Positions 25,673 through 46,069 of a DNA stretch of 64,000 nt are shown here, one piece after another. Numbering within the stretch: position 1 is the first letter of the stretch; every line of letters begins with the position of its first letter. This DNA comes from an uncultured Chloroflexia bacterium (GTDB lineage: Bacteria; Chloroflexota; Limnocylindria; Limnocylindrales; CSP1-4): contig CAWHDR010000001.1 in the NCBI GenBank assembly GCA_963828165.1, forward strand, positions 1,376,001-1,440,000. Direction: 5' to 3'. Below the pieces are notes generated by a model that did no database searches, was not told the origin of the DNA, and saw only the letters and a program-made list of their open reading frames with translations. The position numbers were made by a program, and so were the translations under genes.

Positions 25673-25816
25673 CGGCCGGCGTGGCCGACCGCCCGGTGCC
25701 AGGGCGCACCGTTGATGGTGGAGTCCAGGGCAGTCGTGTGGGCTTTGGTATGGCATCGCCGGTACAGTGACGCGATACCGAAGCGGCACTTGCTTCGAGG
25801 AGGAGGACGACCCGTC

Positions 25817-28800
25817 GTGTCCGTCAGTCACCGCGCCCCCGCACGCCCCCTGATCCTTGCCCTGATCGCCGCGATGGCGATCGCCGCCCTCCCGGCCGGG
25901 AGGGCGCTCGCCTTCACGCTGGACCCGGCTACCGTTTGGATCAACGAGATCCACTACGACAACACCGGGGCGGACGCCGGCGAGACCGTCGAGATCGCCG
26001 GGCCGGCCGGAACCGACCTCACGGGCTGGACCCTCGTCGGATACAACGGGAGTGGCGGCGCCCCGTACGAAACCAAGGCATTGACCGAGACCATTCCTGA
26101 TCAACAGAACGGCTTCGGCACAGTGAAAGTCGACTTCGTCGGGCTCCAGAACGGGTCACCGGACGCCATCGCTCTTGTCCATGGATCCGACTTGGTCCAG
26201 TTCCTCAGCTACGAAGGGACCTTCACCGGAGTCGGTGGTGCCGCGAACGGTGAATTGAGCACGGACATCGGCGTATCGGAGAACGGCGCTGGAGCCGCCG
26301 GGAACTCCCTACGGCTCACGGGCACCGGCTCGACCTACCAGGACTTCACCTGGAACGCCGAGGCGGCATCGAGCTGGGCATCCCCGAATCCCGGACAGAC
26401 CTTCCAGGCCGATCCGGGCGATGCGACCCCGTCCGTCGCCCTCACGACGCCGCTCGATGGCGCGACGAACGTCCCGGCGAACGCACCCATCAGGATCACG
26501 TTCAGCGAGCCCGTGACCCTCGACGCCGAGGCGGCGATCCTCTCCTGCAAGGAAGCGACGCTCGCCCCGACCGACGATCCGAAGGTCTTCGAGTTCGTCT
26601 ACCTCCCGCCATTGCCCGCAGGGGGCACGTGCGGCTACACCATCGACAGGACCAAGGTCCACGACGTCGATACCGACGATCCGCCTGATGGGATGGCATC
26701 CGACGTCACGGTCAGCTTCACCGTCGCGACACCGGTCGTCGTCAGCCCGGACATCAAGATCAGCCAGGTCTACGGTGGCGGCGGCAACGCCGGCGCCGAC
26801 TATCGAAACGACTTCATCGAGTTGTTCAACCGCAGCGCGGCGGACGTATCGGTCGCCGGGTGGTCCGTCCAGTACGCATCGTCGACAGGCGCGACCTGGC
26901 AGGTGACGCCCCTGAGCGGATCCGTTCCGGCCGGCAAGCACTACCTGATCCAGGAGGCCGCCGGCGCCGGCGGCACCCTCTTCCTGCCGGATCCGGACGC
27001 GACCGGGACGATCCCGATGTCCGCGACCGCCGGCAAGGTCGCGTTGGTCGCCTCGACCACCCCGCTTACGGGCACCTGCCCGACCGGCGGCGCCATCGTG
27101 GACTTCGTTGGCTACGGCACGGCTGCCAACTGCTTCGAAGGGGCCGGCCCGACGGGGGCCACCAGCAACACGACCGCCGCCCTGCGCAAGGGTGAAGGCG
27201 CCACCGACACCGACAACAACAACGCGGACTTCGTCATCGGCGCCCCGAACCCGCGCGCGGCCCACGACTCCGCCCCGCGCGTCGCGTCAACCTTCCCGGC
27301 GGCCACCGCGACCGGCGTCCCGTCCTGGGCCAACCTGACGATCACGTTCAGCGAGCCCGTCGACGTCACCGACGGCTGGTACTCCATCAATTGCGCGACG
27401 AGCGGAAGCCACGCCGCGACGGCATCGGGCGGGCCCGGCACCTTCACGCTGGATCCGACCGCGAACTTCGTCGGCGGCGAGGCCTGCACCGTCACGGTCG
27501 TCGCGGCCAACGTGACCGATGAGGACACCGACGATCCGCCGAACGCCATGGCCGCGGACCACGTCTTGAGCTTCACCGTCGCCGCGGACGTCACGTGCGG
27601 CGACCCGGCCACCTTCATCCACCAGATCCAGGGCAGTGGCCTCGCTTCGCCCCTCGTCAACCAGACCGTCGAGGTCCAGGGCGTCGTCGTCGGCGCCTAT
27701 CCGGGCGCCAACGGCTTCCAGGGCCTCCATGTCCAGGAAGAGGACGGCGATCACGATACGGATCCTGCGACGTCCGAGGGCATCTTCATCTTCGAACCCA
27801 ACGGCGGCGCCACGTACGCCGTGGGGGACGTCGTCCGGATCAAGGGACGGGTCACGGAGTTCACGACCACCGGCGTGACGCTGACCGAGCTCACGAATCT
27901 CAACAACCTCGTCGTGTGCGCCAGTGGCCAGACGGTCACCCCTGCCACCGTGAGCCTGCCGTTCTCGTCATTGACCTTTGCCGAGCGTTTCGAAGGCATG
28001 CTCGTGGACATCGACCAGGAGCTGAGCGTCACCGAGACCTTCACCCTCGGACGGTTCGGCGAGGTCGTCCTGTCCTCGGGCGGCCGCCTGATCACCCCGA
28101 CCAACGTCGTCGCCCCGGGCGCACCGGCGATCGCCATGCAGGCAGAGAACGACCGGAATCGGATCGTGCTCGACGACGGCGACAATCGCCAGAACCTCGA
28201 CCCGACGCTCTACCCGACCGGCGGGCTGAGTGCATCCAACACGCTGCGCATCGGTGACTCGACCGACGGCGGCACCTTCGTCCTGGAGCAGCGGTTCGGG
28301 ACCTACCGGCTCCAGCCGACAGCGACCCTGCCGACCTTCGAGCCGACCAACCCACGGCCCGAGGACCCGGACGGGGTCGGCGGCACCATCAAGGTGGCGT
28401 CGATGAACGTCCTCAACTACTTCACGACGCTCGACACCAATCCGGGCAGCGGCAACGGCCCGGACATCTGCGGCCCCTCCCTCCTGGAGTGCCGGGGCGC
28501 CAACACCGAGTTCGAGCTCGATCGCCAGCGAGCCAAGATCCTGAGCGCGCTCATCGGTCTCGACGCCGATGTCGTCGGGCTGATGGAGATCGAGAACAAC
28601 GACCATGAAGCCGTGGCTGACCTCGTCGAGGGGCTCAACGAGATCCTCGGCGCTGGCACGTACGACTACATCGACACTGGCACCATCGGGACGGACGCGA
28701 TCAAAGTCGCGTTCATCTATCAGCCCGCGTCCGCAACCCCGGTCGGCGAGTACGCGATCCTCGACTCCACCGTCGACCCGCGCTTCCTCGACCAGCGCAA

Positions 28801-29692
28801 CCGTCCCGCCCTCGCCCAGACCTTCGAGTCGACCGCGACCGGCGGGCAGGCGACGGTCATCGTCAATCACCTCAAGTCCAAGGGATCGGCTTGCGACGGC
28901 GACCCGGACACGGGCGACGGCCAGGGCAACTGCAACCTGACCCGAGTCGACGCCGCGGAGGCACTGGTCGACTGGATCGCCAGCGATCCGACCGATAGCG
29001 GCGACCTGGATGCGATCGTCATCGGCGATCTCAACAGCTACGCCGAGGAGGATCCGATCGGGGTCTTCGAGGACGCCGGCTACGAGAACATGATCCGGAC
29101 GTTCCTCGGCGACGAGGCCTACTCGTTCGTCTTCCAGGGCCAGTCCGGCTACCTGGACCATGCCCTGGCCGACGCGACGCTGCCGGCCCAGATCACCGGG
29201 ACCACCGAGTGGCACATCAACGCGGACGAGCCGATCGTTCTCGACTACAACACCGACTTCAAGTCGGAGAATCACGTCGAGACCCTGTTCGCGCCACACG
29301 CCTATCGCTCGTCCGACCATGACCCGGTCCTGGTCGGCGCCGATCTCCTGGCCTACGACTTCGGCGGCTTCCTGAATCCCGCCTCTGGCTCCGGCGTGAC
29401 CACCATCAACGCCGGACGAACCTTGCCGGTCCGCTTCTCGCTGGACGGCGATCGGGGGCTCGCGGTGTTGTACGGCGACCCCGCGTTCCAGCGGACGGAT
29501 TGCTCGTCCGGGGCGGCGATCGGCTCGCCGATCACGGCCGTCGCAAATGAGCCGTTCTCGTACTCCGCCGCGACCGACACCTACAAGTTCGCGTGGAAGA
29601 CCCAGAAATCCTGGGCGACGTGGTGCGGAACGCTGACCATGGTCTTCGCCGACGGCACGTCCGAGGAGTTGGACGTGCGCTTCAAGAACTGA
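25817..29692 (+). CDS. ExeM/NucH family extracellular endonuclease with lamin-tail, Ig-like and PxKF-like domains
   Basis: Signal peptide; WINEIHYDN and KISQVYGGGG lamin-tail domains; IHQIQG...SEGIF OB fold; NVLNYF, NHLKSKG, GDLNSY, SSDHDPV EEP domain; RBS GGAGG before GTG 25817. Confidence 0.92.
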   Translation: MSVSHRAPARPLILALIAAMAIAALPAGRALAFTLDPATVWINEIHYDNTGADAGETVEIAGPAGTDLTGWTLVGYNGSGGAPYETKALTETIPDQQNGFGTVKVDFVGLQNGSPDAIALVHGSDLVQFLSYEGTFTGVGGAANGELSTDIGVSENGAGAAGNSLRLTGTGSTYQDFTWNAEAASSWASPNPGQTFQADPGDATPSVALTTPLDGATNVPANAPIRITFSEPVTLDAEAAILSCKEATLAPTDDPKVFEFVYLPPLPAGGTCGYTIDRTKVHDVDTDDPPDGMASDVTVSFTVATPVVVSPDIKISQVYGGGGNAGADYRNDFIELFNRSAADVSVAGWSVQYASSTGATWQVTPLSGSVPAGKHYLIQEAAGAGGTLFLPDPDATGTIPMSATAGKVALVASTTPLTGTCPTGGAIVDFVGYGTAANCFEGAGPTGATSNTTAALRKGEGATDTDNNNADFVIGAPNPRAAHDSAPRVASTFPAATATGVPSWANLTITFSEPVDVTDGWYSINCATSGSHAATASGGPGTFTLDPTANFVGGEACTVTVVAANVTDEDTDDPPNAMAADHVLSFTVAADVTCGDPATFIHQIQGSGLASPLVNQTVEVQGVVVGAYPGANGFQGLHVQEEDGDHDTDPATSEGIFIFEPNGGATYAVGDVVRIKGRVTEFTTTGVTLTELTNLNNLVVCASGQTVTPATVSLPFSSLTFAERFEGMLVDIDQELSVTETFTLGRFGEVVLSSGGRLITPTNVVAPGAPAIAMQAENDRNRIVLDDGDNRQNLDPTLYPTGGLSASNTLRIGDSTDGGTFVLEQRFGTYRLQPTATLPTFEPTNPRPEDPDGVGGTIKVASMNVLNYFTTLDTNPGSGNGPDICGPSLLECRGANTEFELDRQRAKILSALIGLDADVVGLMEIENNDHEAVADLVEGLNEILGAGTYDYIDTGTIGTDAIKVAFIYQPASATPVGEYAILDSTVDPRFLDQRNRPALAQTFESTATGGQATVIVNHLKSKGSACDGDPDTGDGQGNCNLTRVDAAEALVDWIASDPTDSGDLDAIVIGDLNSYAEEDPIGVFEDAGYENMIRTFLGDEAYSFVFQGQSGYLDHALADATLPAQITGTTEWHINADEPIVLDYNTDFKSENHVETLFAPHAYRSSDHDPVLVGADLLAYDFGGFLNPASGSGVTTINAGRTLPVRFSLDGDRGLAVLYGDPAFQRTDCSSGAAIGSPITAVANEPFSYSAATDTYKFAWKTQKSWATWCGTLTMVFADGTSEELDVRFKN

Positions 29693-29709
29693 TCGTGTAG
29701 CCGCCACCT

Positions 29710-29751
29710 CGACGCCGGCCGGCGGGTCATCACGACCCTCGGCCGGCGTCG
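29710..29751 (+). terminator. Hairpin after nuclease gene
   Basis: CGACGCCGGCC...GGCCGGCGTCG inverted repeat. Confidence 0.55.
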
Positions 29752-29815
29752 TCATGTCGTGACGGTCCTGCATGCCAGCCCATCGGAGGGCGGGCCGGGT
29801 CGCTAGCATCTGGAC

Positions 29816-30808
29816 GTGCTCGTCGAATCGGTCCCGAACGTGTCCGAAGGTCGCCGGCCCGACGTCGTCGACCGGATGGCGGAGGCGATCTCGTCGGTCC
29901 CCGGTGTCTCCTTGCTCGACCGCACGAGCGACGCGAGCCACAACCGCTCGGTGTTCACGATCGCCGGCGAGCACGAGGGGGTCACGACGGCCCTGGAGAA
30001 CCTCGTCGAGAGCGCGATCCACGAGATCGACATGGACACCCACGAAGGGGAGCATCCGCGCATCGGCGCGGTCGATGTCATCCCGTTCATCCCGCTCGCC
30101 GATGCGACGATCGACGCGTGCGTCGACCTGGCGCGCTCGTTCGCCGAGCGCATCGCGACCCGGTTCGACATCCCCGTCTACCTGTACGCGCGCGCCGCAA
30201 CGAGGCCCGACCGCGAGAAGCTCGCCGACGTCCGCCGCGGGCAGTACGAGGGCCTGCGGGCCGAGATCGGTCAGCGCGGCCGTGAGCCCGATTTCGGTCC
30301 GGCCCACCTTCACCCATCGGCCGGGGCGATCGCCGTCGGAGCGCGGCCGTTCCTCATCGCCTACAACATCAACCTCGACACGACGGACGTCGATCTTGCG
30401 AAGCGGATCGCCCGGCGCGTGCGCGAGTCGGGCGGGGGACTGCCCCGGGTGCAGGCCAATGGCTTCGAGGTTCGCGAGCCGGAACGTGGCCACCCACTCC
30501 GCGCCCAGGTCTCGATGAATCTCCTCGACTTCACCGTGACGCCACTCTGGGTCGTCTGGGACGCCGTCCGCGACCTCGCGGCGGAAGACGGCGTGGAGCC
30601 CGCGGAGTCCGAGCTCATCGGGCTCGCACCGCTGGCCGCCTTCCTGGATGTCGCCGACCGGGCCGGCGCGGACGCAGACAAGCCGCTCGACGAACGGCTA
30701 CGAGCCGCGGCGACGTACCTTCGCCTGCGGGACTTCTCGCCGACGCAGGCGCTCGAGCTACGCCTCGAGGAAGCGCGCGGATCGCCCGGCGGGCGCCACG
30801 CCCCATGA
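29816..30808 (+). CDS. ftcD: Glutamate formimidoyltransferase
   Basis: LVESVPNVSEGR, HNRSVFT, HPRIGAVDVIPF, RRGQYEGL, QVSMNL. Confidence 0.95.
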   Translation: MLVESVPNVSEGRRPDVVDRMAEAISSVPGVSLLDRTSDASHNRSVFTIAGEHEGVTTALENLVESAIHEIDMDTHEGEHPRIGAVDVIPFIPLADATIDACVDLARSFAERIATRFDIPVYLYARAATRPDREKLADVRRGQYEGLRAEIGQRGREPDFGPAHLHPSAGAIAVGARPFLIAYNINLDTTDVDLAKRIARRVRESGGGLPRVQANGFEVREPERGHPLRAQVSMNLLDFTVTPLWVVWDAVRDLAAEDGVEPAESELIGLAPLAAFLDVADRAGADADKPLDERLRAAATYLRLRDFSPTQALELRLEEARGSPGGRHAP

Positions 30809-34392: not shown

Positions 34393-36111
34393 CTACATCG
34401 ACTCGGGCGCGGAGATCCCCAGGAGCCCCAGCGTCCGCGCGAGCGTGACCTGGGCGGCCCGTGCGAGCGCGAGCCTTGCCACGGAGCGCTCCGGCTCGTC
34501 GGGATCGACCACGCGGGCGTCGCGGTAGAAGGCATGGAAGGCGGTCGCGAGCTCGATTGCGTAGGCGGTGACGCCCTGGGTCTCTTCCCCGACGACCGCG
34601 TCCTCCACGACCTCGGGGAAGCGAACGATCGCGCGCGCGAGCGCGGCCTCCGGCCCTCCCCCGAGCGTGCCGGCCACCGATGACGCCGGCGCCATGCCCG
34701 CGTCGGAGGCCTTGCGCAGGATCGAGGCGATCCGGGCGTGGGCGTATTGGACGTAGTAGACGGGCAGCTTGCTGGCCTCCTCGTGGTCGCCTCGCTCCAG
34801 GGCTTCGCGCAGGCCGCGCATCTGCTCGATGTCGAAGTCGATGCTGGTCGTCGCCGCGCGCGAGGCGAAGAACCAGCGTGCGGCATCCACCCCGACCTCG
34901 GCCAGGAGCTCGTCGAGCGTGATGAACGCGCCGGCTCGCTTCGACATCGACACGTCTTCGCCGTTGCGCACGAAGCGCACCCAGGCATAGAGGAGCATCT
35001 GCACCCTCGTGGGGTCGTAGCCCATCGCCTGGGCGGCGTTGCGGACACGCGCGACGGTGCCGTGGTGATCGGCCCCCCAGACGTAGATCACGTGATCGAA
35101 GCCACGGCTGAACTTCTCGGTCACGTAGCCGATGTCGGCCGCGAAGTACGTCGGCTCGCCGTTCGATCGGATGATCACCCGGTCCTTGTCGTCGCCGAAG
35201 GCGGTGGACCTGAACCAGATCGCGCCGTCCCCCTCGAACACATGCCCGTTCTCGCGCAGGCGCTCGACCGCACGTTCGACCCAGCCCTCGTCATGTAACG
35301 AGGCCTCGGTCTTCCAGACATCGAACCGGACACCGAGTTGCGCCAGGCTTGCCTCGATGCCCTGCCGCACGATGCCCGCGGCCCAATGGCCGATGATCGA
35401 CGGCGCGTCCGCGTCCGCCGCGTTCGCGGCTTCCCAGATCTCAGGCGGCACCTTCGGAACAAGATCGTCGACGTACGCGCCGTGATAGCCATCCTCGGGC
35501 ACCCGCTCGCCCTGTTTGAGCGCGACGATCGATGCGCCGAGGTTGGGAATCTGCCCTCCGACGTCGTTGAAGTAGTACTCGCGTGTCACGTCCTGGCCCC
35601 CGGCCTCGAGGACACGGCTCAGGAGGTCTCCGATGAACGCGCCGCGCGCGTTCCCGATCGTCAGCGGCCCGGTCGGGTTGGCCGACACGAACTCCACATT
35701 GACCTTGCGTGGCCCGGTCGGGCTCACCCGTCCCCAGGCATCGGGCGCATCGAGGATGCCGTCGATCATGGCCGCCAGGGCGTCGGGCCGCAGCCGGATG
35801 TTCATGAAGCCGGGCTTGGCGACCTCGACCGCTTCGATCGGGGAGTCGGAGCCTGTTTCCCCGGCGTCACGAACGAGCTTTGCGGCCAGGAGCGTGGCGA
35901 GCTCGAGCGGCGAGCGCTGATATGGCCGCGCGAGCTTCATGGCGAGGTTGCTGGCGAGATCGCCGTGCGCCGGGTTGGCCGGGCGCTCCACCTCGATCGA
36001 GGGACTTGGGACACCCTCGGACAGAGGCGGCAGGGCGCCGGACTCGATCGCGGCGGCCCACGCGCGCTCCAACGCGGCGCGGACCTGGCTGCGCAGCGGA
36101 GCGGGGATCAA
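34393..36111 (-). CDS. argS: Arginine--tRNA ligase
   Basis: HGDLASN, EFVSANPTGPL, GADHHG, MSKRAG, YYVQYAHARI, C-terminal LGISAPESM; TTG start with GGAGG RBS. Confidence 0.96.
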   Translation of the reverse strand: MIPAPLRSQVRAALERAWAAAIESGALPPLSEGVPSPSIEVERPANPAHGDLASNLAMKLARPYQRSPLELATLLAAKLVRDAGETGSDSPIEAVEVAKPGFMNIRLRPDALAAMIDGILDAPDAWGRVSPTGPRKVNVEFVSANPTGPLTIGNARGAFIGDLLSRVLEAGGQDVTREYYFNDVGGQIPNLGASIVALKQGERVPEDGYHGAYVDDLVPKVPPEIWEAANAADADAPSIIGHWAAGIVRQGIEASLAQLGVRFDVWKTEASLHDEGWVERAVERLRENGHVFEGDGAIWFRSTAFGDDKDRVIIRSNGEPTYFAADIGYVTEKFSRGFDHVIYVWGADHHGTVARVRNAAQAMGYDPTRVQMLLYAWVRFVRNGEDVSMSKRAGAFITLDELLAEVGVDAARWFFASRAATTSIDFDIEQMRGLREALERGDHEEASKLPVYYVQYAHARIASILRKASDAGMAPASSVAGTLGGGPEAALARAIVRFPEVVEDAVVGEETQGVTAYAIELATAFHAFYRDARVVDPDEPERSVARLALARAAQVTLARTLGLLGISAPESM

Positions 36112-36200
36112 GGGGGCGTGTCCTCCGGGTGATGGGTGGGCGCCCCAATCGTACCGGGGCAGCCCGGTGCCTGGAGTACCAGGGCTCCCAGGACCCTGAT

Positions 36201-36402
36201 GGTGCGTGGACGCACCGGTTTCCGGCCACGCTGGGCGGAGGCTGATAGTCCGGTTGGGTCCCGACCATCCGTCGGTACTAGACCGAGGGGTACCTGCCGT
36301 GCAACTATCGGTCCACGTCGTTCCGGTGAACGGACGTTCAGGAAAGCCACCGGAAGGCAGCACTCATTTCATCCGAGGCCATCGCGCCTCTGTTCGGGGA
36401 CC
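36201..36402 (+). promoter_or_regulatory. Conserved upstream module of surface protein 1
   Basis: GGTGCG-N4-CGCACC 36201; GGTACTAGAC 36274; TGC-AACTAT extended -10 at 36300-36308; GAGGC..GCCTC hairpin and GGGGACC before ATG; same layout upstream of 38265. Confidence 0.55.
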
Positions 36403-36407
36403 ATCAC

Positions 36408-37901
36408 ATGTTGTACTCGCGATCTCGCACGCGCCACCGCCTTGCCCGACGCCTGTCGTGGCTTGTCATCGCCTCGCTCACATCCGTGGCGCTGTTCGCG
36501 CCCGGCACCCTTTCGGTGTCGGCTGCCTCGGTCGCCCCGATCTACCTGCCCGCCGACATCGATGGCGACGGCAAGAACGACAGCAACCCGACCTGTGCGG
36601 ACCTCGACGGTCTGTACGGCGGCACCCAGACCTGGGCCGAGCTCGAGAAGATCAACGGGATGCCGGCCAACGGCACGTACGGTGAGATCACGATCTCCGG
36701 CGTCGCGGGCCAGACCTTCAGCTGGAGCTCGACCGTCGGTGTTGACGCCGTCCTGGTCAAGGCCGGCAGCGACAACCACGCGCTCTACGTCTATGCGCCC
36801 ACCGCCGGGTCAGCCGAGTGGTTCAGCGATACGAACCTGACGCATGGCCCGAGCCAGCAGGGCACGAGCCACGTGACCTTCTGCTACGACACCTCGAACC
36901 CGCGGCCGACCGAGGCTCCGACCAACCCGCCGACCGAGGCCCCGACGGAAGCCCCGACGGAAGCCCCCACGGAAGCCCCCACGGAAGCCCCCACGGAAGC
37001 CCCCACGGAAGCCCCCACGGAAGCCCCCACGGAAGCCCCGACTGAGGCTCCGACTGAGGCTCCGACGGAAGCCCCGACGGAAGCCCCGACTGAGGCACCG
37101 ACGGAAGCTCCGACTGAGGCGCCGACCGAGGCGCCCACGGAAGCTCCGACCGAGGCCCCCACGGAAGCTCCGACCGAGGCCCCCACGGACGCTCCGACCG
37201 AGGCTCCGACCGAGGCCCCCACGGAGGCTCCGACCGAGGCCCCCACGGAAGCTCCGACCGAGGCCCCCACGGAAGCTCCGACCGAGGCTCCGAACGAAGC
37301 CAGCATCCTGATCGCGAAGCTCGACAGCCGCGGCACGGATACGTCCGAAGATGACGTCCTCCTTGACGGCGCTTCCTTCGAGGTCTATCTCGACGACGGC
37401 GACGCGGCATTCGACGACGGTGACGAGCTCGTGTTCGGCGCCGCGGCGACCTCCGAAGGCATGCTGGACACTGACCTGCTCCAGGCGGGCTGGTACTGGA
37501 TCGTCGAAGTCGTGGTGCCCGAGGGCTACACCGGAAGCGACCCGATCCTGGTCGAGCTCAATACCGATCCGTCCATCACCTGCATCTGGGACTCGCACGG
37601 CCTGATCGAGTGCGAGGACAGCGAGGGCAACGTCGACGACCTGAGCTGGACGATCGTCCTCGTGGACAACACGCCCGTCTCGGCTCCGACCGAAGCTCCG
37701 ACCGGTGGCGTCGGTGGCGCAACGGGTACGCCGGGCGCCGGTGTCACCCTTCCGCCGACCGACACGCTGTCCGGTGGACCAGAAGGCCTGGCCGGCGACG
37801 GCTGGCGCCTCATCCTCCTCGCCATGGCCGGTCTCATGGCCGCCGCCCTCCTCGTGACCCCGGCAACGGTCGTGGTCCGGCGGGACGACAAGCTCGACTG
37901 A
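36408..37901 (+). CDS. Cell-surface protein: uncharacterised N-domain, PT-repeat stalk, prealbumin/SpaA-like domain, LPPTD-type C-terminal signal
   Basis: Signal peptide; VLVKAG...SHVTFC domain; PTEA repeats; LDGASFEVY...GWYWIVEVVVPEGY; TLPPTDTL-TM-RR. Confidence 0.88.
   Translation: MLYSRSRTRHRLARRLSWLVIASLTSVALFAPGTLSVSAASVAPIYLPADIDGDGKNDSNPTCADLDGLYGGTQTWAELEKINGMPANGTYGEITISGVAGQTFSWSSTVGVDAVLVKAGSDNHALYVYAPTAGSAEWFSDTNLTHGPSQQGTSHVTFCYDTSNPRPTEAPTNPPTEAPTEAPTEAPTEAPTEAPTEAPTEAPTEAPTEAPTEAPTEAPTEAPTEAPTEAPTEAPTEAPTEAPTEAPTEAPTEAPTEAPTDAPTEAPTEAPTEAPTEAPTEAPTEAPTEAPTEAPNEASILIAKLDSRGTDTSEDDVLLDGASFEVYLDDGDAAFDDGDELVFGAAATSEGMLDTDLLQAGWYWIVEVVVPEGYTGSDPILVELNTDPSITCIWDSHGLIECEDSEGNVDDLSWTIVLVDNTPVSAPTEAPTGGVGGATGTPGAGVTLPPTDTLSGGPEGLAGDGWRLILLAMAGLMAAALLVTPATVVVRRDDKLD
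36906..37289 (+). repeat. 12-bp coding tandem repeat, 32 units (mostly PTEA)
   Basis: CCSACNGARGCN units spanning 384 bp. Confidence 0.95.
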
Positions 37902-37943
37902 CCTCCAAGGTGCGCTCACGCGCATCCGCAGTCCCCGAACACC

Positions 37944-37984
37944 GACGGCCGTCGGGTCCCGAAAGGGCCCGGCGGTCGTTCTTT
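37944..37984 (+). terminator. Intrinsic terminator
   Basis: Long GC stem with GAAA loop followed by TTCTTT. Confidence 0.8.
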
Positions 37985-38077
37985 GATGCCCGTCGCGGTC
38001 CCAGGCCGACGATGTCCGCGGATTGACGGCATCACGGTCAGCGCGATGACCGGTCGTGCATGATCGGGGCGGGGGTT

Positions 38078-38258
38078 GTTGCGGGTTCGCACCGAAATAG
38101 GACCGATGGCTGGCCTGGTGGGCGTTTTGATAGGAGATAGGTACTAGACGGCCGCCTCGGGGCGTGCCACCATCCGCCACCTCGACGTGTCGGTCCTGGG
38201 GGGACCGGGCGGTCGGCATCAATCGAATCGAGGCGTTCCGCCTCCTCGTGTGGGGACC
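38078..38258 (+). promoter_or_regulatory. Conserved upstream module of surface protein 2
   Basis: GTTGCG-N4-CGCACC 38078; GGTACTAGAC 38140; TAGACG-17 bp-CACCAT with TG extension; GAGGC..GCCTC hairpin; GGGGACC. Confidence 0.55.
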
Positions 38259-38264
38259 TATCGA

Positions 38265-39128
38265 ATGAATCCTGTTTCGCGTCAACGCACCTGGCTGGCA
38301 CGTCGGCTCGGATGGTTCGCCGTCGCCGGATTGGTGGCCGCCTCCTTCGCCCCGTCCGCATTCGCCGCGACGGTCATCACCCACCCCACCGGCAATCCGG
38401 ATTGCGGGGATCTGGGCTATTCGCTGACCTTCAAGATCGACACCGGCGATCTCGAGGAGCGCACCTACGAGTGGGATGAGGGCAACCCCGTCGACTCCGA
38501 CTGGGACGGCCAGTCCATCACGATCTCCGACCTCTCGGACGACGGCCAGACGTTCAGCTGGACGTCGACCCTCCCGGTCTCGGCGGTCCTGGTGAAGGCC
38601 GGCACCGACAACCACAATCTGTACTCCTACAACCCGCCAGTCCTGGGTGACGACGGCCTCACGCACGGGGATGACCAGCAGGGCATCAGCCATGTGTCGT
38701 TCTGCGGAAACCCACCCCCGGAGCCCACGGAGGCACCGACCGAGGCTCCGACGAACCCGCCGACCGACGCGCCGACCGACGCCCCGACCGACGCCCCGAC
38801 CAACCCGCCGACCGAGGCTCCGACGGAAGCGCCGACTGAGGCTCCGACGGAAGCTCCGACCGAGGCTCCGACCGAGGCCCCGACGGAGGCTCCGACCGAG
38901 GCCCCGACGGAGGCTCCGACCGAGGCCCCGACCGGTGGCGTTGGTGGTGCGACGGGCACGCCGGCGGGCGCAACGACCGGAACAACGTTGCCGCCGACCG
39001 ACACGCTTGGTGATCCGGCCAAGGCCCCCGGCAACGATGCCTGGAGGCTCGTCCTCCTGGCTCTCGCCGGCACCCTTGCCGGAGCCCTCCTGCTGACCCC
39101 GGCCCGCTCCGTCCGCAAGGACCGCTGA
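38265..39128 (+). CDS. Cell-surface protein, paralog of 36408 without the SpaA-like domain
   Basis: Signal peptide ending AFA; NPDC...GQTFSW...VLVKAG...ISHVSFC; PTEA repeats; TLPPTDTL-TM-RKDR. Confidence 0.88.
   Translation: MNPVSRQRTWLARRLGWFAVAGLVAASFAPSAFAATVITHPTGNPDCGDLGYSLTFKIDTGDLEERTYEWDEGNPVDSDWDGQSITISDLSDDGQTFSWTSTLPVSAVLVKAGTDNHNLYSYNPPVLGDDGLTHGDDQQGISHVSFCGNPPPEPTEAPTEAPTNPPTDAPTDAPTDAPTNPPTEAPTEAPTEAPTEAPTEAPTEAPTEAPTEAPTEAPTEAPTGGVGGATGTPAGATTGTTLPPTDTLGDPAKAPGNDAWRLVLLALAGTLAGALLLTPARSVRKDR
38724..38927 (+). repeat. 12-bp coding tandem repeat, 17 units (PTEA/PTDA/PTNP)
   Basis: 204 bp of 12-mer units. Confidence 0.95.
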
Positions 39129-39161
39129 CCGGAGGTGCGCAGGGCGCACCGATCGAACGAC

Positions 39162-39201
39162 GAGAGACCGCCGGATCCCCACGGACCGGCGGTCTCTCTT
39201 T
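39162..39201 (+). terminator. Intrinsic terminator
   Basis: GAGAGACCGCCGG...CCGGCGGTCTCTC followed by TTT. Confidence 0.85.
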
Positions 39202-39565
39202 GCGTCCCATGGAGGGTCGATCGCGGGGCCGCGACGTCGTGGACTGCGCCTCCAGATCGCCGGGCCCACGCCCAGATGGGGTACCAGGACCCTCGTTGCG
39301 AGCCTGCACCGGAACCGAGGATGCGGTCTTGTGCGGTCCGCGCGGATTGGGGCTCTTGAGGGTCAGACCTGACCAGTATCAATGGGCCACCCTGGTCCAT
39401 ACGATGCCGGCAATTGGTCCTGTGTCCGCCTGGTACTAACGCCCATGGACACAGGCGCGGTCTCGGACCGCAGCCATCATCGGCGCCCTTGGCGCCAGCC
39501 GCCGCAGCGCCCTGTCAAGGCGCCGAGCACAGCAGAGGGTCGGGGGACCAGAAGGGATCAAGCCG

Positions 39566-42500
39566 ATGTCTCGGGGACTTTGGTTTTCGATGAACGCGCG
39601 GACACGCAGGAGTCTGACCCTGGTGTGGACCGCGCTGTTCCTGTTCTCGTTGGCGCTTCAGTCCGTCACGCTGGCCACGCCGACGTCGGTCCTGGCCGTG
39701 CACGACGAAGGCGTCTTCGAGCTCGACGGCAATGCGCTCAACAGCGCCAGCGCCGGCGACGATTGGGCCGCCGTGTTCGGCGACACCGACTCGGCCTTCG
39801 CCTCGGTCTTCACGACCGACGCCGTCGGCGCCGGTGACAACATGCTCACGGGTGGTGGCTCCAAGGACGTCACCGACATCCCGCAGTGGGAGCTCGCCAG
39901 CGGCACTGTCCAGGACAAGAACGACATCGCGCATGCGTTCGCTGCCGCGTACATCGCGGGGGCCGACAACGATCTCCTCGTGTACTTCGGACTCGATCGC
40001 TACGCGCAGAACGGCGCGGCGCAGGCCGGGTTCTGGTTCCTCCGCAACCCGATCACCCCGAGCGGCAGCAGCCTGGGCACGTCCCACTCGGTCGGCGACG
40101 TCCTCGTCCAGATCGACTTCGAGAACGGCGGCACCGACCCGAAGGCCCGCGTCTACGAGTGGACCACTTCGGGCCTCGCGCTCGTGTCGAGCGGCGCCTC
40201 CTGTACGGCGGCCGGCGCGGATGACGACCGCTGTGCGATCTCGAACACCGCGAACAGCAACACCGCCTGGACGTTCAACCCGAAGTCGGGCGCGAACAAC
40301 GTGTACCAGCCCGGCCACTTCCTCGAGGGCGGCATCAACATGTCCGACCTCGGCCTGGATGACAGCTGCTTCTCGACGTTCCTTGCCGAGACGCGCAGCT
40401 CGCCCTCGGAGGACTCGACGCTCTCCGACATCACCTACGGGTCCTTTCCCCTGTGCGTCGCTCCGGACATCGCGACCCAGGTCCGGAACGATCAGGGCAA
40501 CAACACCAACGCCATCAACAAGGGCGAATCGGTGACCGACCACGCCGTCGTCAGTGGCAGCAAGGGCGTCGCAACGGGCACCATCGACTTCTTCGTCTGC
40601 GGACCGACGTCCTCGGCCGAGGCATGCACGAGCGGCGGAACGCAGCGTGGCAACGACATCCCGCTCGTCGCCGGCGAGGCGGACTCCCTGGGCTTCACGC
40701 CCACGGCACTCGGCTGGTACTGCTTCCGTGCGGAATACACGCCCAGCGCGAATTCCAAGTACCTCGCAGGGTCGCACACGAACGCGACCACCGAGTGCTT
40801 CCGGGTCAAGCCCGCTGACGTCCAGATCGTCAAGACGCCGAACAACGGAACCGAGTCGGCCGGCAGCCCCATCAGCTTCACGCTGAGCTGGGCGAACGAG
40901 GGTGAAGGCAGCGCCACGGGCGTGGTCGTGAGCGACACCCTGCCAAGCGGCAACGGCCTCGACTGGAGCATCAGCGCCAGCACCGGCACCGGTTCCACAT
41001 GCGTGCTCAGTGCGGCTGACGTCCTGACCTGCAACGTCGGCACGATCGCCGGCAACCCCAACTTCCCGAATGCCGCCCCGGTCAACGGAACCGTCACGCT
41101 CACGAGCGCGACGACCAGTGCCGCCTGCGGCGAGATCAACAACACCGGCCAGATCACGTCGAACAACGACGGCACCGACAACGACCCGGGACAGGTGACC
41201 GTCCTGTGCCCGGATGTCAAGGTCGAGAAGACGCCGGATGGCGGCACGGTCCAGGCCGGCGCGACGGCGACCTTCACGATCGTCGTCACGAACCTCGGCC
41301 CGGGCACCGCCACGAACGTGACCCTGACCGACGACCTGCCGGTGGGCTACGTCTGGACCCTCGGTGGCGCTGATGCGGCCAGCTGCTCCATCAACACCGT
41401 CCCGAGCCCCGACGTCCTGTCCTGCAACTTCGGCAGCATCGGAGACGACGGAACCCGAACGATCACCCTCAGCGCGCCGACCACCGGCGCGAACTGCGCG
41501 GTCATCGACAACACGGCCATCGTCGACGCCGCCAATGAGCCGGAGCGTGCCAACGGCAACAACTCCGACCCGGGCAGCATCGACGTCCTGTGCGCGGTGA
41601 TCCAGCTCGAGAAGACCGCCAAGCCGGCCGGACCGGTCAGCGCGGGCGACGAGATCGGCTTCGACATCGTCGTCAGCAACACCGGCGATGGCACGGCCAC
41701 CAATGTGGTTGTCACCGACGACCTCCCCGCCGGTGTGAACTGGTCGATCGACCCGGCCGTCACCGGCTGCTCGATCGACGGTGACGTCGGCGACCAGACC
41801 CTGACCTGCAGCAGGGCCAGCCTCGCGGCCGGCGCGAGCTTCACCGTCCACATCGAAGGTGTCACCGACGCCCTCGACTGCGGGACGATCAGCAACACCG
41901 CCTTCGTCACCACGGGGAACGACGGAAACGACTCGGATGACGCGTCCGTCGTGGTCCTCTGCCCCGACATCGAAGTCGAGAAGACCGGCAACGGGACGAT
42001 CGACGCCGGTGGGAACGCGGTCTTCACCATCAAGGTGACCAACCACGGTCCAGGTGAGGCCAAGGGCGTGACGCTCGCGGACCAGCTGCCTGCGGGGACC
42101 TGGATCCTCGGCGGCGCAAATGGCGACGACTGCGCCATCAGTGCTTCCAACCTGCTCAGCTGCGATTTCGGCAGCATCGGTGACGACGGAACGCGGACCA
42201 TCACGGTCACGCTCACGACGACAGCCGACGATTGCGGCTCGATCCTCAATACGGTCACCGTATCGGCGACCAACGAGCCGGCCAACGATCAGTTTCCGAA
42301 CACGGACAACGACACGATCGTCGTCCAGTGCCCGGATCTGACCGTTGCGAAGACCGGCAACGGGCCGATCTCCGCGGGTGAGACCGCCACGTTCACCATC
42401 ACCGTCACCAACCTTGGCCCGGGTGCGGCCGCGGATGCGACGCTGTCCGATCAGCTCCCGGCTGGTGCCTGGACCCTTGGTGGCGCCGATGCCGCCGACT

Positions 42501-45157
42501 GCGCCATCGACGCTTCCAACCTGCTCACCTGCGACTTCGGCACGATCGATGCGCCGGGTCAGGGAGCGGACAACATCCGCGTGATCACGGTCAGCAAGAC
42601 GTCGGACGCCGGCGACTGCGACTCGATCCCCAATGCCGTGACGGTCGGGGCCTCCAACGAGGCCGGCGAAGACACGGACGACAACGACGACAACGCGACG
42701 ATCGTCGTGAACTGCCCCGACATCCAGGTCGTGAAGGACGGCAACGGCCCGATCTCCGCTGGTGAGGGGGCGATCTTCACGATCACCGTCACCAACCTCG
42801 GCCCGGGCACGGCGTTCGACGTCGAGCTCACGGACGAGCTCCCGGCCGGCACCATCTGGACACTGGGTGGCGCTAATGCCGTCTCGTGCTCGATCGACGA
42901 CACGGTCAACCCCGATCTCCTGTCATGCGACTTCGGGACGCTCGTGGACGACGCCTCCCGGACGATCACCCTGACCGGTGAGACCGACGCGGGGGACTGC
43001 GGCTCCATCCCGAACCTCGCAGCGGCGACGGCCTCCAACGAGTCCGACGACGACCTCGAGAACAACGATGACGACGCGACGATCGTCGTCAACTGCCCGC
43101 TCATCGTCATCACCAAGTCGGCCGACGCTCCCGTCGTCAGCGCCGGGGACCAGATCGGCTTCACGGTCACGGTCACCAATACCGGCGCAGGTACCGCGTT
43201 CGGCGTCACCGTCACCGACACCCTGCCCGGCGACATGAGCTGGGCGATCAGCCCGGCCAGCACGGGCTGGACCATCACGGCTGGTGTGCTGAGCTTCGGC
43301 CCGGCGCCGCTGGCCGGTGGGACCTCCACGTCCGTCCACATCATCGCCACGACGGATGCGACCGATTGCGGCCTCGTCCCGAACACGGCCTTCCTGCAGT
43401 ACAGCGGCGGCTCCGGCTCCGATGACTCGGAGATCACCGTGGAATGCCCGGACATCACCATCGGCAAGACGGCTGCCAACAGCCCGATCGTCGCTGGTGC
43501 CGTGGCCAGCTACACCATCACCGTGGTCAACAAGCTCGGCGACGGCATCGGCATCGCGCGCGACGTCACCGTGGACGACGACCTGCCGGCCGGCGTCACG
43601 TGGTCGGAGGACAGCGAGGATTGCACGATCGTCGCTGGTCACCTCCACTGCGACTTCGGCGACCTGGATCCCGGTGACAGTGCGTCCGTGACCGTCAGCG
43701 GCACGACGAGCACCGCCAACTGCGGCAACCTGCCGAACCTCGCCTCGACCGAAGCCTCCAACGAGGCCGAGGAAGACACGGACGACAACAGCGACGACGC
43801 CACGATCATCGTGCGTTGCCCTGAGATCGAAATCGACAAGACGGCCAACGACGACCTCGTCGAGCCGAACCAGACCGTGACGTTCACCATCAAGGTGTTC
43901 GTCGCCGACGGCCCGGTCACGGCAGCGGTCGTGACGGACGTGCTGCCCGTCGGGCAGACCTACGTTGCCAACAGCCAGACGTCGGCCCCCGGTTCGACCT
44001 TCGCGATCTCCGCGAACGGCCGGACCCTGACCTGGACCTTCGCCAGCTTGTCTGACGGCGTCCAGGGTGCCGCCGCCGCGACCATCACCTACCGAGTGAA
44101 GATCGATGCCAACGCGGCGACGACCAGGCAGGTCAACGAAGCTGAAGTGTGTGTCTCGGAGCTCGAGGGCTGCGTCTCGGACGACGAGGACGTGACGCCG
44201 CAGCGGCCTCTCATCAGGCTGATCAAGACTGCGGGCACCGCAGCCAACGGCGCCGTCTTCGCGACGACCGCCGGCCCGGTCAAGTACACCTACGTCGTCA
44301 CGAACACCGGACCGCTCCCGCTGGTCAACGTCACGGTCAAGGATGACGCCGGCACGCCCGCGGTCTCGGGCGACGACTTCTTCGCCACCTGCCCCAAGAC
44401 GACCCTCGCGGTCGCCGAGTCGATGACCTGTACGTTCACCCGCGCAGTCGCGATCGACACGATCAACATCGCGGTCGCCCGTGGCGTCACGGCCGGGGGC
44501 AACCCCGTCCAGGACGACGATGACGCGGCCGTCGTGATCCTCGAATTTGGCCTCCTCATCGACAAGACCAACAACGCGCCGCTCGAATCCATCGAGCTGC
44601 CGGACGGGACCATCGTCGATCTGCCCACGGCAGACGCGGGCGAGACCGTGACCTTCACGCTGAAGTACGACCTCACCGGCGATCCCGTCACGAACGGCGT
44701 CATCACGGACGTCTTGCCGATCGGCATCACGTATGTCGCGGGCTCCGCCACCAACGATGCCCAGTTCACCTTCCATAGCTACTCGAGCGGGACGCGTACG
44801 CTCCGCTGGACGGCCGCGAACGTGACCCGGGACGGCTCGGTCACCTATCGAGCCAAGATCGACGCGGGCGCCGCGGAGCTCCCGCAGCCGCTCATCAACG
44901 TCGCCACGATCGACTCGGCGCAGACCGGGCCCGATGACGACGACTCGGAGGTCTTCGTGCCCACGGTCGTGGCCGGCGCAACCGCCACCCCACGGATCAC
45001 GTTGCCGCCGACCGATAGCCTTGCCGACACAACGCCGGCACCGAGCAACGGGGGCTTCACCCTGATGCTCATCCTGCTGGCCCTCGCAGCGGTCGTCCTC
45101 GTGGTCGGGTTCGTCACTCCGGTGCCGGTCTCGGTCCGTGAACGGGAGCGCCGCTGA
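39566..45157 (+). CDS. Large DUF11-repeat surface adhesin (1863 aa) with LPPTD-type C-terminal signal
   Basis: Signal peptide; FELDGN..DDW..KND N-domain; about ten Cys-containing repeats CPD..V.KT...FTI.VTN.G...L.D.LP...C..N.A; TLPPTDSL-TM-RERERR; start may be ATG 39590. Confidence 0.9.
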   Translation: MSRGLWFSMNARTRRSLTLVWTALFLFSLALQSVTLATPTSVLAVHDEGVFELDGNALNSASAGDDWAAVFGDTDSAFASVFTTDAVGAGDNMLTGGGSKDVTDIPQWELASGTVQDKNDIAHAFAAAYIAGADNDLLVYFGLDRYAQNGAAQAGFWFLRNPITPSGSSLGTSHSVGDVLVQIDFENGGTDPKARVYEWTTSGLALVSSGASCTAAGADDDRCAISNTANSNTAWTFNPKSGANNVYQPGHFLEGGINMSDLGLDDSCFSTFLAETRSSPSEDSTLSDITYGSFPLCVAPDIATQVRNDQGNNTNAINKGESVTDHAVVSGSKGVATGTIDFFVCGPTSSAEACTSGGTQRGNDIPLVAGEADSLGFTPTALGWYCFRAEYTPSANSKYLAGSHTNATTECFRVKPADVQIVKTPNNGTESAGSPISFTLSWANEGEGSATGVVVSDTLPSGNGLDWSISASTGTGSTCVLSAADVLTCNVGTIAGNPNFPNAAPVNGTVTLTSATTSAACGEINNTGQITSNNDGTDNDPGQVTVLCPDVKVEKTPDGGTVQAGATATFTIVVTNLGPGTATNVTLTDDLPVGYVWTLGGADAASCSINTVPSPDVLSCNFGSIGDDGTRTITLSAPTTGANCAVIDNTAIVDAANEPERANGNNSDPGSIDVLCAVIQLEKTAKPAGPVSAGDEIGFDIVVSNTGDGTATNVVVTDDLPAGVNWSIDPAVTGCSIDGDVGDQTLTCSRASLAAGASFTVHIEGVTDALDCGTISNTAFVTTGNDGNDSDDASVVVLCPDIEVEKTGNGTIDAGGNAVFTIKVTNHGPGEAKGVTLADQLPAGTWILGGANGDDCAISASNLLSCDFGSIGDDGTRTITVTLTTTADDCGSILNTVTVSATNEPANDQFPNTDNDTIVVQCPDLTVAKTGNGPISAGETATFTITVTNLGPGAAADATLSDQLPAGAWTLGGADAADCAIDASNLLTCDFGTIDAPGQGADNIRVITVSKTSDAGDCDSIPNAVTVGASNEAGEDTDDNDDNATIVVNCPDIQVVKDGNGPISAGEGAIFTITVTNLGPGTAFDVELTDELPAGTIWTLGGANAVSCSIDDTVNPDLLSCDFGTLVDDASRTITLTGETDAGDCGSIPNLAAATASNESDDDLENNDDDATIVVNCPLIVITKSADAPVVSAGDQIGFTVTVTNTGAGTAFGVTVTDTLPGDMSWAISPASTGWTITAGVLSFGPAPLAGGTSTSVHIIATTDATDCGLVPNTAFLQYSGGSGSDDSEITVECPDITIGKTAANSPIVAGAVASYTITVVNKLGDGIGIARDVTVDDDLPAGVTWSEDSEDCTIVAGHLHCDFGDLDPGDSASVTVSGTTSTANCGNLPNLASTEASNEAEEDTDDNSDDATIIVRCPEIEIDKTANDDLVEPNQTVTFTIKVFVADGPVTAAVVTDVLPVGQTYVANSQTSAPGSTFAISANGRTLTWTFASLSDGVQGAAAATITYRVKIDANAATTRQVNEAEVCVSELEGCVSDDEDVTPQRPLIRLIKTAGTAANGAVFATTAGPVKYTYVVTNTGPLPLVNVTVKDDAGTPAVSGDDFFATCPKTTLAVAESMTCTFTRAVAIDTINIAVARGVTAGGNPVQDDDDAAVVILEFGLLIDKTNNAPLESIELPDGTIVDLPTADAGETVTFTLKYDLTGDPVTNGVITDVLPIGITYVAGSATNDAQFTFHSYSSGTRTLRWTAANVTRDGSVTYRAKIDAGAAELPQPLINVATIDSAQTGPDDDDSEVFVPTVVAGATATPRITLPPTDSLADTTPAPSNGGFTLMLILLALAAVVLVVGFVTPVPVSVRERERR

Positions 45158-45184
45158 TCCCTCCCTTTGGGGTCCCCGAGACCC

Positions 45185-45221
45185 GGGCGGAGCGCTCCGC
45201 CGTCCGTGGAGCGCTCCGCCC
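45185..45221. terminator. Hairpin between convergent genes
   Basis: GGGCGGAGCGCTCCG...TGGAGCGCTCCGCCC. Confidence 0.65.
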
Positions 45222-45289
45222 CGTCTACGCCGACCGGGGCGTGCCAGCGATGGTGCGTCCCGGTCGTCCACGTCCGGCGCAGGGCGCGA

Positions 45290-46069
45290 CTAGGCTCCGA
45301 TCGTGAACCGATCGCCCGGGTTGACGAGGGTGACCGGGCCCTTGTAGGTCGCCCGTACCGACTCGATGGTGGCGGCCTCGTCGAAGCCCATCTGGAGGTG
45401 GGTCAACAGCACCGCGCCGACGCCCGTGCGGTTCGCCAGGGCGGCAACGGCAGGGCCATCCAGGTGGATCGCGCCCGCCGGGACGGGCCCCGGCCCGAAC
45501 GACACCTCCGACAGCAGCGTGTCACCGGCCCGAACCAGGGCATCGACGTCTTCCGCTCGCCCGCAGTCGCCGGTGTAGACGAGCCCCGGACCGCTGCCGT
45601 CGCCAATGGAGACCCGATAGGCGTGACTATCGTCGGTGTGCGTGACGCGTCGCGCCTCGACCGTCAGCGTGCCCACGGCCCAGCTGCCCGTCTCGACATC
45701 CTCGACATCGAGCGACCTGGCCGTGAAGCCGGGATCCTCGTGCAGCGCGTCGATGCGCCGCGCGAGGCCCGCCGGAGCCTGGACCCGGACACGCCGTGCG
45801 GGCTTGAACTGCCAGTACAGGTAGTGGCGCAGGGCCACCAGGTCGATGAAATGGTCCGGATGCAGGTGGCTGACGACGACCGCGTCGAGCGAGCTTGGCT
45901 CGAGGGCATCGGCGAGTCGCGGAAACGACCCCTGCCCAAGGTCGAGCAACAGCGAGGTGGGACCGTGTCGCAGGAGGTATGCCGCCCCGCTCGCGCCGGC
46001 TCGATCGGTATAGGCGGGCCCGGCACCGAGCACGTCGAGCTGCAGCGATCCGGTCGTCCGTGACATCAC
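45290..46069 (-). CDS. MBL-fold metallo-hydrolase (RNase Z/BN-like)
   Basis: LLDLGQG, SHLHPDH, YTGD, LLTHL. Confidence 0.9.
   Translation of the reverse strand: MMSRTTGSLQLDVLGAGPAYTDRAGASGAAYLLRHGPTSLLLDLGQGSFPRLADALEPSSLDAVVVSHLHPDHFIDLVALRHYLYWQFKPARRVRVQAPAGLARRIDALHEDPGFTARSLDVEDVETGSWAVGTLTVEARRVTHTDDSHAYRVSIGDGSGPGLVYTGDCGRAEDVDALVRAGDTLLSEVSFGPGPVPAGAIHLDGPAVAALANRTGVGAVLLTHLQMGFDEAATIESVRATYKGPVTLVNPGDRFTIGA

Follow-up and report, generated by a model that had tools for sequence, protein, structure and literature searches.

Three tandem genes in a 64,000-nt stretch from the genome of an uncultured soil Chloroflexota bacterium (the stretch is hereafter the window) encode surface proteins, P1, P2 and P3, that end in the same C-terminal tail, in which an LPPTD core is followed by a hydrophobic helix and a basic end. 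This tail is a real, modular and lineage-specific C-terminal signal. We propose, at a probability of roughly 0.6, that it represents a variant, specific to this lineage, of the sortase-type C-terminal sorting signal and is read by sortase homologues that carry Ser and are encoded elsewhere in the genome; that the signal is of the sortase type, taken alone, can be stated with somewhat greater assurance. The system is likely not of a new kind, and its enzyme would be a divergent sortase-fold protein and not the founder of a new enzyme family. The genome carrying the window (G000) has a GC content of 69.6% and a completeness of 87.7%, and its homologues bear names that assign the organism to Chloroflexota, Candidatus Limnocylindrales.

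A modular C-terminal tail in three tandem surface proteins

The elements of the tail follow one order in P1, P2 and P3: GAT[GA]TP upstream, then 2-7 residues, the core TLPPTD[TS]L, a spacer of 13 residues, a hydrophobic helix closed by TP, and finally a basic end. The hydrophobic stretches are 20-22 residues long and begin WRLILLAMAG in P1, WRLVLLALAG in P2 and FTLMLILLALAA in P3; the basic ends that follow hold 2-4 Arg/Lys (RRDDKLD, RKDR and RERERR, respectively). The genes and tail elements, in window positions, are as follows.

36408..37901, plus strand: P1, 497-aa, probably secreted surface protein (open reading frame (ORF) call)
37716..37733, plus strand: P1 upstream element GATGTP
37746..37769, plus strand: P1 core TLPPTDTL (aa 447-454; proposed recognition and cleavage site, after Thr)
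37803..37901, plus strand: P1 helix WRLILLAMAGLMAAALLVTP, basic end ATVVVRRDDKLD and stop
38187..39128, plus strand: P2, 313-aa ORF counted from GTG
38946..38963, plus strand: P2 upstream element GATGTP
38985..39008, plus strand: P2 core TLPPTDTL (aa 267-274)
39042..39128, plus strand: P2 helix WRLVLLALAGTLAGALLLTP, basic end ARSVRKDR and stop
39566..45157, plus strand: P3, 1863-aa surface protein (ORF call, domain searches)
44975..44992, plus strand: P3 upstream element GATATP
44999..45022, plus strand: P3 core TLPPTDSL (aa 1812-1819)
45056..45157, plus strand: P3 helix FTLMLILLALAAVVLVVGFVTP, basic end VPVSVRERERR and stop

The LPxT core of sortase signals is present as LPPT in all three proteins, and the residue after the Thr at the presumed scissile position is Asp, not Gly, in each. 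The initial annotation, made from the window's sequence, had placed the three motifs at 37746, 38985 and 44999, which is exactly where they lie, and had put the spacer at about 10-12 aa; measured from the Asp to the hydrophobic stretch, it is 13 residues in P1, P2 and P3 alike. It had also called the third protein otherwise unrelated to the first two and the signal therefore modular, and the tail is indeed the sole part that P3 has in common with P1 and P2. Within the genome the exact word LPPTD occurs near the ORF end in 4 of 40,387 six-frame ORFs, namely P1, P2, P3 and a 42-aa chance ORF, and it was dropped as a genome-wide marker for looser patterns and profiles.

Conservation and distribution of the tail

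A profile built from the three window tails (A1) matches tails in 20 of the 24 other genomes of the genus, with E values down to 3e-25, so the tail is not a chance match; a count of this kind in related genomes was what the initial annotation had proposed as a check. In an alignment of 28 distinct tails from 20 loci of the window's genus (profile A2), the P and T of P-x-T-D are invariant and their flanks vary, while conservation is at least 90% for the D, for the P of G-T-P and for the P that follows the helix. In other genera T or P frequently stands in for the L of LPxT, and the core drifts to forms such as TPPPTST, TPPSTDT, TPPNTAT and TLPPTST, and reads VPNTAL or TPNTAF in family f4.

The range of the tail was determined in a class sample of 151 genomes from families f1 to f5, f1 being the window's family, and in a phylum sample of 301 genomes. 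Within the class sample, A2 matches 42/44 genomes of f1 (13 genera), 1/6 of f2, 0/49 of f3, 9/50 of f4 (all weak) and 0/1 of f5. In the phylum sample it matches 14/15 genomes of f1, 3/15 of f4 and, weakly, 2 elsewhere. A lineage-specific signal with a motif, helix and basic-tail layout, as first claimed, is borne out by this near-absence outside f1. The motif is far from confined to the three genes of the window: in a library of 1.84 billion cluster-representative proteins, A2 finds 970 proteins at E ≤ 0.001, 315 of them at E ≤ 1e-10. Among the best 150 of these 970 matches, xPxTxx precedes a C-terminal hydrophobic stretch in 147 and Asp follows the Thr in 108; LPPTDT is the commonest form.

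Genomes carry 1-6 copies of the tail, and a cluster of a giant DUF11 protein with one or two small proteins bearing the same tail recurs in other genera (L100-L113), with genomes G042 and G139 syntenic for it. In G000, A2 gives three strong matches (E 1e-27 to 2e-22) and three weak ones. The pattern P.T[DSA][TSA] no more than 30 aa before the helix is enriched among G000 proteins with a C-terminal helix and basic end, at 6 of 127 compared with 111 of 10,620 random 38-aa windows (1.05%). Looser tails in this genome read PPPTDT, VPPTDA, LPETDS, MPETAT and PPNTAT, likewise with a helix and a basic end (C1:2106281-2107277, C1:2210182-2212618 on the minus strand, C5:21884-22612, C1:590277-591081 and C1:421422-421943); some of these proteins passed a stricter filter, and they may be additional substrates. 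None of the NCBIfam signal models matches the three window tails at E ≤ 10.

Sortase homologues and their adjacent substrates

A search of G000 with the sortase family PF04203 gives four matches, three of them (srt1, 73.7 bits; srt2, 34.0; srt3, 31.5) over the cut-off of 26.6 and one (srt4, 25.5) below it.

G000:C1:1246785-1247432: srt1 (1222-1872 of locus L001)
G000:C1:98662-99399: srt2, LTLQTC, Cys kept
G000:C1:1211497-1212204: srt3, LWLQTSEGP...GKTQV (1243-1926 of locus L003)
G000:C1:563800-564720: srt4, LWLQTSEGP...GKTQV, second copy of the srt3-type (locus L004)

Of these, srt1 passes TIGR01076 (46.4 bits, cut-off 39.35) and none of the class A-F or GN models, against which it scores 23-36 bits where the cut-offs are 140-166; srt2, srt3 and srt4 match no class model. 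Aligned to solved sortases, srt1 keeps the catalytic-site His and Arg and has Ser at the Cys position (LTLQTS versus TLLTC). The His is kept in all four genes (AHA[RH]), and the Arg in srt1 and srt2, with Lys in srt3 and srt4. The Cys position reads QTS or YTS in srt1, srt3 and srt4, and QTC in srt2 alone. Ser is found there also in f4 sortases (ERLTLQTSQG) and in srt3-like proteins of f2 (ILQTSE), and 114 of the best 120 among 1355 srt1 homologues at E ≤ 1e-8 have Ser, the other 6 Cys.

Directly upstream of srt1 lies the gene of an Ig-like (Big_1) protein that ends in GLPRTDT, 10 residues, a helix and RRK. This arrangement is general. The 66 public srt1-type loci (L126-L191) yielded 58 recognised sortase ORFs (48 Ser and 10 Cys forms, the latter interspersed), of which 53 have at least 700 nt of upstream DNA; at 48 of these 53 usable loci the upstream gene on the same strand ends in LPxTxx, a helix and a basic tail. 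The residue after the Thr in these 48 substrates is S in 35, D in 8, T in 3 and V and E in 1 each, the last two probably being second motifs picked by the script, and the residue after that is T in 43. Because Gly occurs in none of the 48, a non-Gly residue after the Thr is the rule for the sortase-adjacent substrates of this class. Ser-type and Cys-type srt1 homologues adjoin the same kind of motif, borne by small Ig-like proteins ending in LPxT[S/D]T. This gene adjacency points to LPxT[S/D]T as the sorting motif of the class, with LPPTD[TS] as a member.

Class-wide tallies of srt1 and srt3 include six unpublished genomes (G160, G117, G154, G146, G171 and G137, all f3/f4), of which the claims on f1 are independent. 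We note a conserved protein of 670-780 aa with the motif YRLTIQKQPG that adjoins srt1-type sortase genes in three genomes, one of them with a Cys-type sortase (L081 2045-4132, L083 2184-4508 and L084 2084-4102).

Profiling against sortase, exosortase and rhomboid families, as suggested with the first description of the tail, thus yields four sortase-fold genes in G000, no exosortase or archaeosortase (PF09721 has no match in this 87.7%-complete genome) and two ordinary rhomboid matches of a universal family. The accompanying idea that the tail has a transpeptidase of its own is thereby refined: the likely enzyme is a divergent sortase-fold protein with its gene elsewhere in the genome, and not a new enzyme family.

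A candidate enzyme and a proposed mechanism

The occurrence of the srt3-type in all f1 genomes with the tail makes it the leading candidate for a housekeeping enzyme. A srt3-type profile (A3) matches 44/44 f1 genomes at E ≤ 9e-45; outside f1 it is found in G091 (f4) alone, at 5e-43, all other matches (E ≥ 7e-24) being cross-matches. The His, the Thr-Ser pair and two Cys are invariant in 30/30 aligned srt3-type sequences, and against srt1 the Ser aligns with Ser and the Lys with Arg. An AlphaFold2 model of srt3 (predicted local distance difference test (pLDDT) 90.5) has its best PDB matches among sortases A, E and C (Foldseek E 1.3e-8, template modelling score 0.63-0.67), for example Streptococcus pyogenes SrtA, T. 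fusca SrtE and pneumococcal SrtC; the srt3-type profile searched against PDB sequences gives no match at E ≤ 0.001. By eye, srt3 resembles membrane-tethered sortases in its hydrophobic segment at the N-terminus and its Pro/Thr linker.

The two invariant Cys lie in YPxC and in the C-terminal PxxC (srt3 and srt4 both end in HPxxxPxxC), and the sequence pattern suggests that the pair is a disulfide staple. The gene upstream of srt3 (L003 494-1240, minus strand) resembles, by eye, a TlpA-type thiol-disulfide oxidoreductase.

When the srt3 domain is modelled in complex with the part of the tail that precedes the helix, the score is 0.35, against 0.01 for the best control, with runs agreeing on at least 89% of contacts and a partner pLDDT of at least 47. 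The mark that this passes was reached by 116/157 solved complexes and 2/215 mismatched pairs; at scores ≤ 0.60, where this prediction falls, it was reached by 18/157 solved complexes and by both passing mismatches. Since sortase-peptide complexes have already been solved, the pass may reflect likeness to them. All told, we regard the srt3-type as a plausible but tentative choice of enzyme for the tail family.

The other candidates were set aside. The srt2-type Cys sortase is found in 22/44 f1 genomes, and the srt1-type, as a general enzyme, in 6/45 including G000 (read from the match table at ≥46 bits over nearly the whole model, with the srt3-type locus excluded). Exosortases and archaeosortases were dropped for want of a PF09721 match in G000, and rhomboids because the two in G000 belong to a universal family and the tails match no signal model. 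Substrate genes were found neither beside srt2, srt3 and srt4 in G000 nor in the 2.6-kb stretches beside the srt3-like genes of G091 and two f2 genomes.

Under the sortase-type reading, P1, P2 and P3 would be exported via putative N-terminal signal peptides (Sec), and their C-terminal helix and basic end would retain them in the membrane. A sortase-fold transpeptidase tethered to the membrane would then recognise (T)LPPT↓D[TS], cut after the Thr and transfer the protein to an envelope acceptor. This could be the cell wall or possibly another fibre subunit, the latter in view of the SpaA-like domain of P1 and the isopeptide domains of P3. The acyl intermediate would form on Ser, as an ester instead of a thioester, because the sortase homologues of this class have Ser for the nucleophilic Cys. 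The putative enzyme is the srt3-type in either of its two copies; the srt1-type, adjoining its own LPRTDT substrate, could act as well. Candidate substrate peptides for the srt3-type and srt1-type domains are GVTLPPTDTLSG and LPRTDT.

A fuller version of this reading would posit a natural serine sortase system in Limnocylindria-type Chloroflexota, with a Ser-His-(Arg/Lys) site and an acyl-ester on the Thr of LPxT↓[D/S]T, the LPPTD tails being substrates of a 'housekeeping' serine sortase that occurs throughout the family and has its C-terminus stapled by a disulfide. We hold it to be conceivable, at somewhat less than even odds. In such a system, Asp or Ser in place of the Gly after the Thr would imply a different leaving group or envelope acceptor.

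Several observations weigh against the sortase-type reading. As the initial annotation had remarked, a scan of the window reveals no sorting enzyme, and no sortase gene lies beside P1, P2 and P3. When the coordinates of the tail and srt3-type matches are compared, only one srt3-type gene is less than 10 kb from a tail gene (at 4.2 kb, in G139:C1). The co-occurrence of the tail and the srt3-type family is essentially one phylogenetic event, and it is imperfect: G091 has the srt3-type with no tail match, as do the f1 genomes G081 and G192 at E ≤ 0.001. Two conserved elements of the tail, the upstream GATGTP and the TP that closes the helix, have no counterpart in classical sorting signals, and no role was found for them. 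No described sorting-signal model recognises the 28 tails, which match neither TIGR01167, PF00746 nor any CTERM model of NCBIfam or Pfam at E ≤ 1, besides PGF-CTERM noise (2/28 tails at E 0.67). The srt3-type is without the conserved Arg and has Lys or another basic residue nearby. Cys mutants of Staphylococcus aureus SrtA are reportedly inactive, the catalytic competence of a Ser-sortase is hypothetical, and complex prediction supports the srt3-tail pairing weakly. Finally, an enzyme family could be missing from the 87.7%-complete assembly.

The srt3-type gene of G139:C1 is itself unusual, a single 436-aa ORF with two tandem srt3-like sortase domains (L078 4182-5489); the LPPTD-tail protein near it is encoded at L078 9714-10667 on the minus strand.

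Alternative explanations

The alternative that survives best, although we consider it improbable, is a plain uncleaved C-terminal membrane anchor in which GATGTP and LPPTD have another use, for example in O-glycosylation or as a rigid stalk, and are not acted on by a transpeptidase. A helix and a basic end suffice for anchoring, glycosylated linkers typically have a Thr/Pro-rich context like the one here (PTEA repeats, GATGTP and TP), the genes of P1, P2 and P3 have no linked enzyme gene, and the conserved tail elements are not known from sortase signals. However, across 13 genera P-x-T itself does not vary, nor does its distance from the helix, while its neighbours drift, and a bare anchor does not account for the LPxT[S/D]T, helix and basic-end layout directly upstream of sortase genes at 48/53 loci, or for the domains typical of sortase substrates in P1 (SpaA-like) and P3 (isopeptide-forming).

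Slightly less probable still is a sorting signal read by an enzyme other than the Ser-type homologues, these being inactive or otherwise employed: the srt2-type Cys sortase, a rhomboid or other membrane protease, or a family missing from the assembly. The case for srt2 is that it keeps the Cys of TLxTC and is confined to f1, with matches in 0/106 genomes outside; yet it occurs in half of the f1 genomes (6/13 genera) against 42/44 for the tail, a count made with a single-protein query that distant copies may escape. Two rhomboid genes are at hand in G000, but rhomboids are universal (14/14 control genomes), and the tail matches no GlyGly-CTERM-like NCBIfam model; nor was an exosortase found in G000. 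Full-text literature searches returned no paper that shows serine catalysis by a sortase fold. Against this stands the pairing at srt1-type loci, where Ser and Cys homologues (~50-60% identity to the query) adjoin substrates of one kind; this speaks for a functional equivalence of the Ser and Cys forms.

Least probable by a clear margin is that P1, P2 and P3 are subunits of a sortase-assembled, pilus-like fibre and that the tail is a polymerisation signal for a pilin-type sortase and not a wall-anchoring one: the recurrent DUF11-protein cluster, the three isopeptide-forming domain matches of P3 and the SpaA-like domain of P1 would suit a fibre, but the genes of pilus-specific class C sortases normally belong to the pilin operon, and neither in the window nor at 15 related loci does the cluster contain or adjoin a sortase gene, no class C model passes for any sortase homologue here, and no pilin motif was seen, with no search aimed at pilin motifs made.

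The three proteins and their genomic setting

P1 consists of a signal-peptide-like N-terminus, a domain of about 120 aa in common with P2, PTEA repeats, a SpaA-like prealbumin domain (PF17802, 34.8 bits; Pfam also reports a PT repeat) and the sorting tail. P2 is its paralogue (BLASTP 2e-49), sharing the N-terminal domain, the PTEA repeats and the tail, and lacks the SpaA-like domain; its start is likelier at the ATG at 38262 (MNPVSRQRTWL...) than at the GTG at 38187. The linkers of the two proteins are tandem repeats.

36930..37301, plus strand: P1 (PTEA)n linker, 12-nt tandem repeat, 31 copies
38730..38934, plus strand: P2 PTEA/PTDA linker, 12-nt tandem repeat, 17 copies

The shared N-terminal domain of about 120 aa (window ~36540-36900 and ~38330-38700) has the pattern GQTFSW.ST..V.AVLVKAG.DNH.LY.Y...SHV.FC and no match in Pfam or NCBIfam. 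P3 has 10-11 DUF11 repeats, 5 DUF7507 stretches and 3 isopeptide-forming (RrgB_K2N_iso_D2) stretches. The N-termini of all three proteins show, by eye, a basic n-region, a hydrophobic core and an Ala-x-Ala-like site. GC content at third codon positions is 0.81-0.90 in the three frames, which in a genome of ~70% GC marks them as real genes.

The neighbours of the three genes are arginyl-tRNA synthetase upstream and, downstream, a metallo-β-lactamase-fold protein and an extracytoplasmic function sigma/anti-sigma pair. A promoter and terminator scan of 36000-45600 gave no signal exceeding shuffles. The window has otherwise been described as holding housekeeping genes only. At 14509-30805 it carries a histidine-utilisation and one-carbon gene set (histidine ammonia-lyase-like, urocanase, formiminotransferase, cyclodeaminase, FolD-like and formate-tetrahydrofolate ligase). 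At 25673-29689, on the plus strand, is a 1339-aa protein with Big_5, Lamin-tail and Exo_endo_phos domains that is likely a secreted or surface nuclease or phosphatase. Two large overlapping ORFs of 793 and 1058 aa (stop-to-stop) lie at 5703-10903 on the minus strand, where the AT skew is strong; neither has a Pfam match, and the second ends in a C-terminal hydrophobic helix and an Arg-rich end, without a PxTD motif.

Implications

Sortases are textbook cysteine transpeptidases and widely used protein-ligation tools, and their signals serve to predict surface-displayed proteins. Throughout a whole family of abundant uncultured soil and freshwater Chloroflexota, the tail is missed by TIGR01167, PF00746 and the CTERM models, so the surface proteome is mis-annotated; the A2 tail profile could become an annotation model at once. 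If the Ser homologues are active, they would constitute a natural serine sortase with a new specificity, LPxT-D/S-T, which would be of enzymological interest and could serve as an oxidation-insensitive ligation tool.

Comparison with known systems

Full-text literature searches, which did not cover most subscription journals, returned no paper on LPxTD or LPxTST signals or on Ser-sortases in Chloroflexota. LPxTD appears as one of several search regular expressions in an excerpt of PMC9210967, and a term search of the 2024 sortase review PMC11231552 found neither 'serine' nor 'Chloroflexi'.

In exosortase/PEP-CTERM, archaeosortase/PGF-CTERM and rhombosortase/GlyGly-CTERM systems, as in the present one, numerous surface proteins within a lineage terminate in a short motif, a helix and a cluster of basic residues. 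Unlike in exosortase-type systems, however, the motif stands 13 residues before the helix and does not abut it, no exosortase or archaeosortase homologue was found and no model matches; for rhombosortase, no tail matches a GlyGly-CTERM NCBIfam model, the rhombosortase model itself not having been searched.

The likeness to classical LPXTG systems with sortases A-F (PF04203, PF00746, TIGR01167 and MEROPS C60) is closer. It comprises the tripartite layout, the LPxT core, an N-terminus that looks like a signal peptide, a candidate enzyme with a sortase fold and a probable membrane tether, and SpaA-like and isopeptide domains in the substrates. In contrast to those systems, Gly after the Thr is missing here (0/48 adjacent substrates), the curated signal models are unmatched, Ser replaces Cys, the srt3-type also has Lys for Arg, and no class model passes. 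A residue other than Gly is not in itself foreign to sortases. To judge from the entry titles, S. pyogenes SrtA accepts Ala or Ser after the Thr in complexes with LPATA and LPATS peptides (PDB 7s51 and 7s4o). These two entries are the best structural matches of the srt3 model, at a sequence identity of ~20%, whereas SrtA is a Cys enzyme of class A.

Class D sortases come nearest in their signals. According to an excerpt of PMC3222306, Bacillus subtilis YhcR (LPDTS) and YfkN (LPDTA) are anchored by YhcS/SrtD, and the B. anthracis SrtD motif is LPNTA; as here, a residue other than Gly comes after LPxT, and a hydrophobic segment and a basic tail complete the signal (PMC3222306, same excerpt). In both cases substrates are few per genome, and the substrate gene often adjoins the sortase gene. 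Class D models are among the weak NCBIfam matches of srt1, at 30.7-30.9 bits and thus far under their cut-offs of 140-165. The system described here differs from class D in its phylum, Chloroflexota, in the residue after the Thr, which is mostly Asp in the tail family or Ser in the sortase-adjacent substrates and is then followed by Thr, in the extra conserved GATGTP and TP elements of the tail, and in the Ser at the Cys position of its enzymes. What sets the tail and its candidate enzymes apart from known systems is therefore a combination: they fall under no curated model and no described class, and they are distinguished by the rule of Asp or Ser followed by Thr, by the extra tail elements and by Ser in place of Cys.

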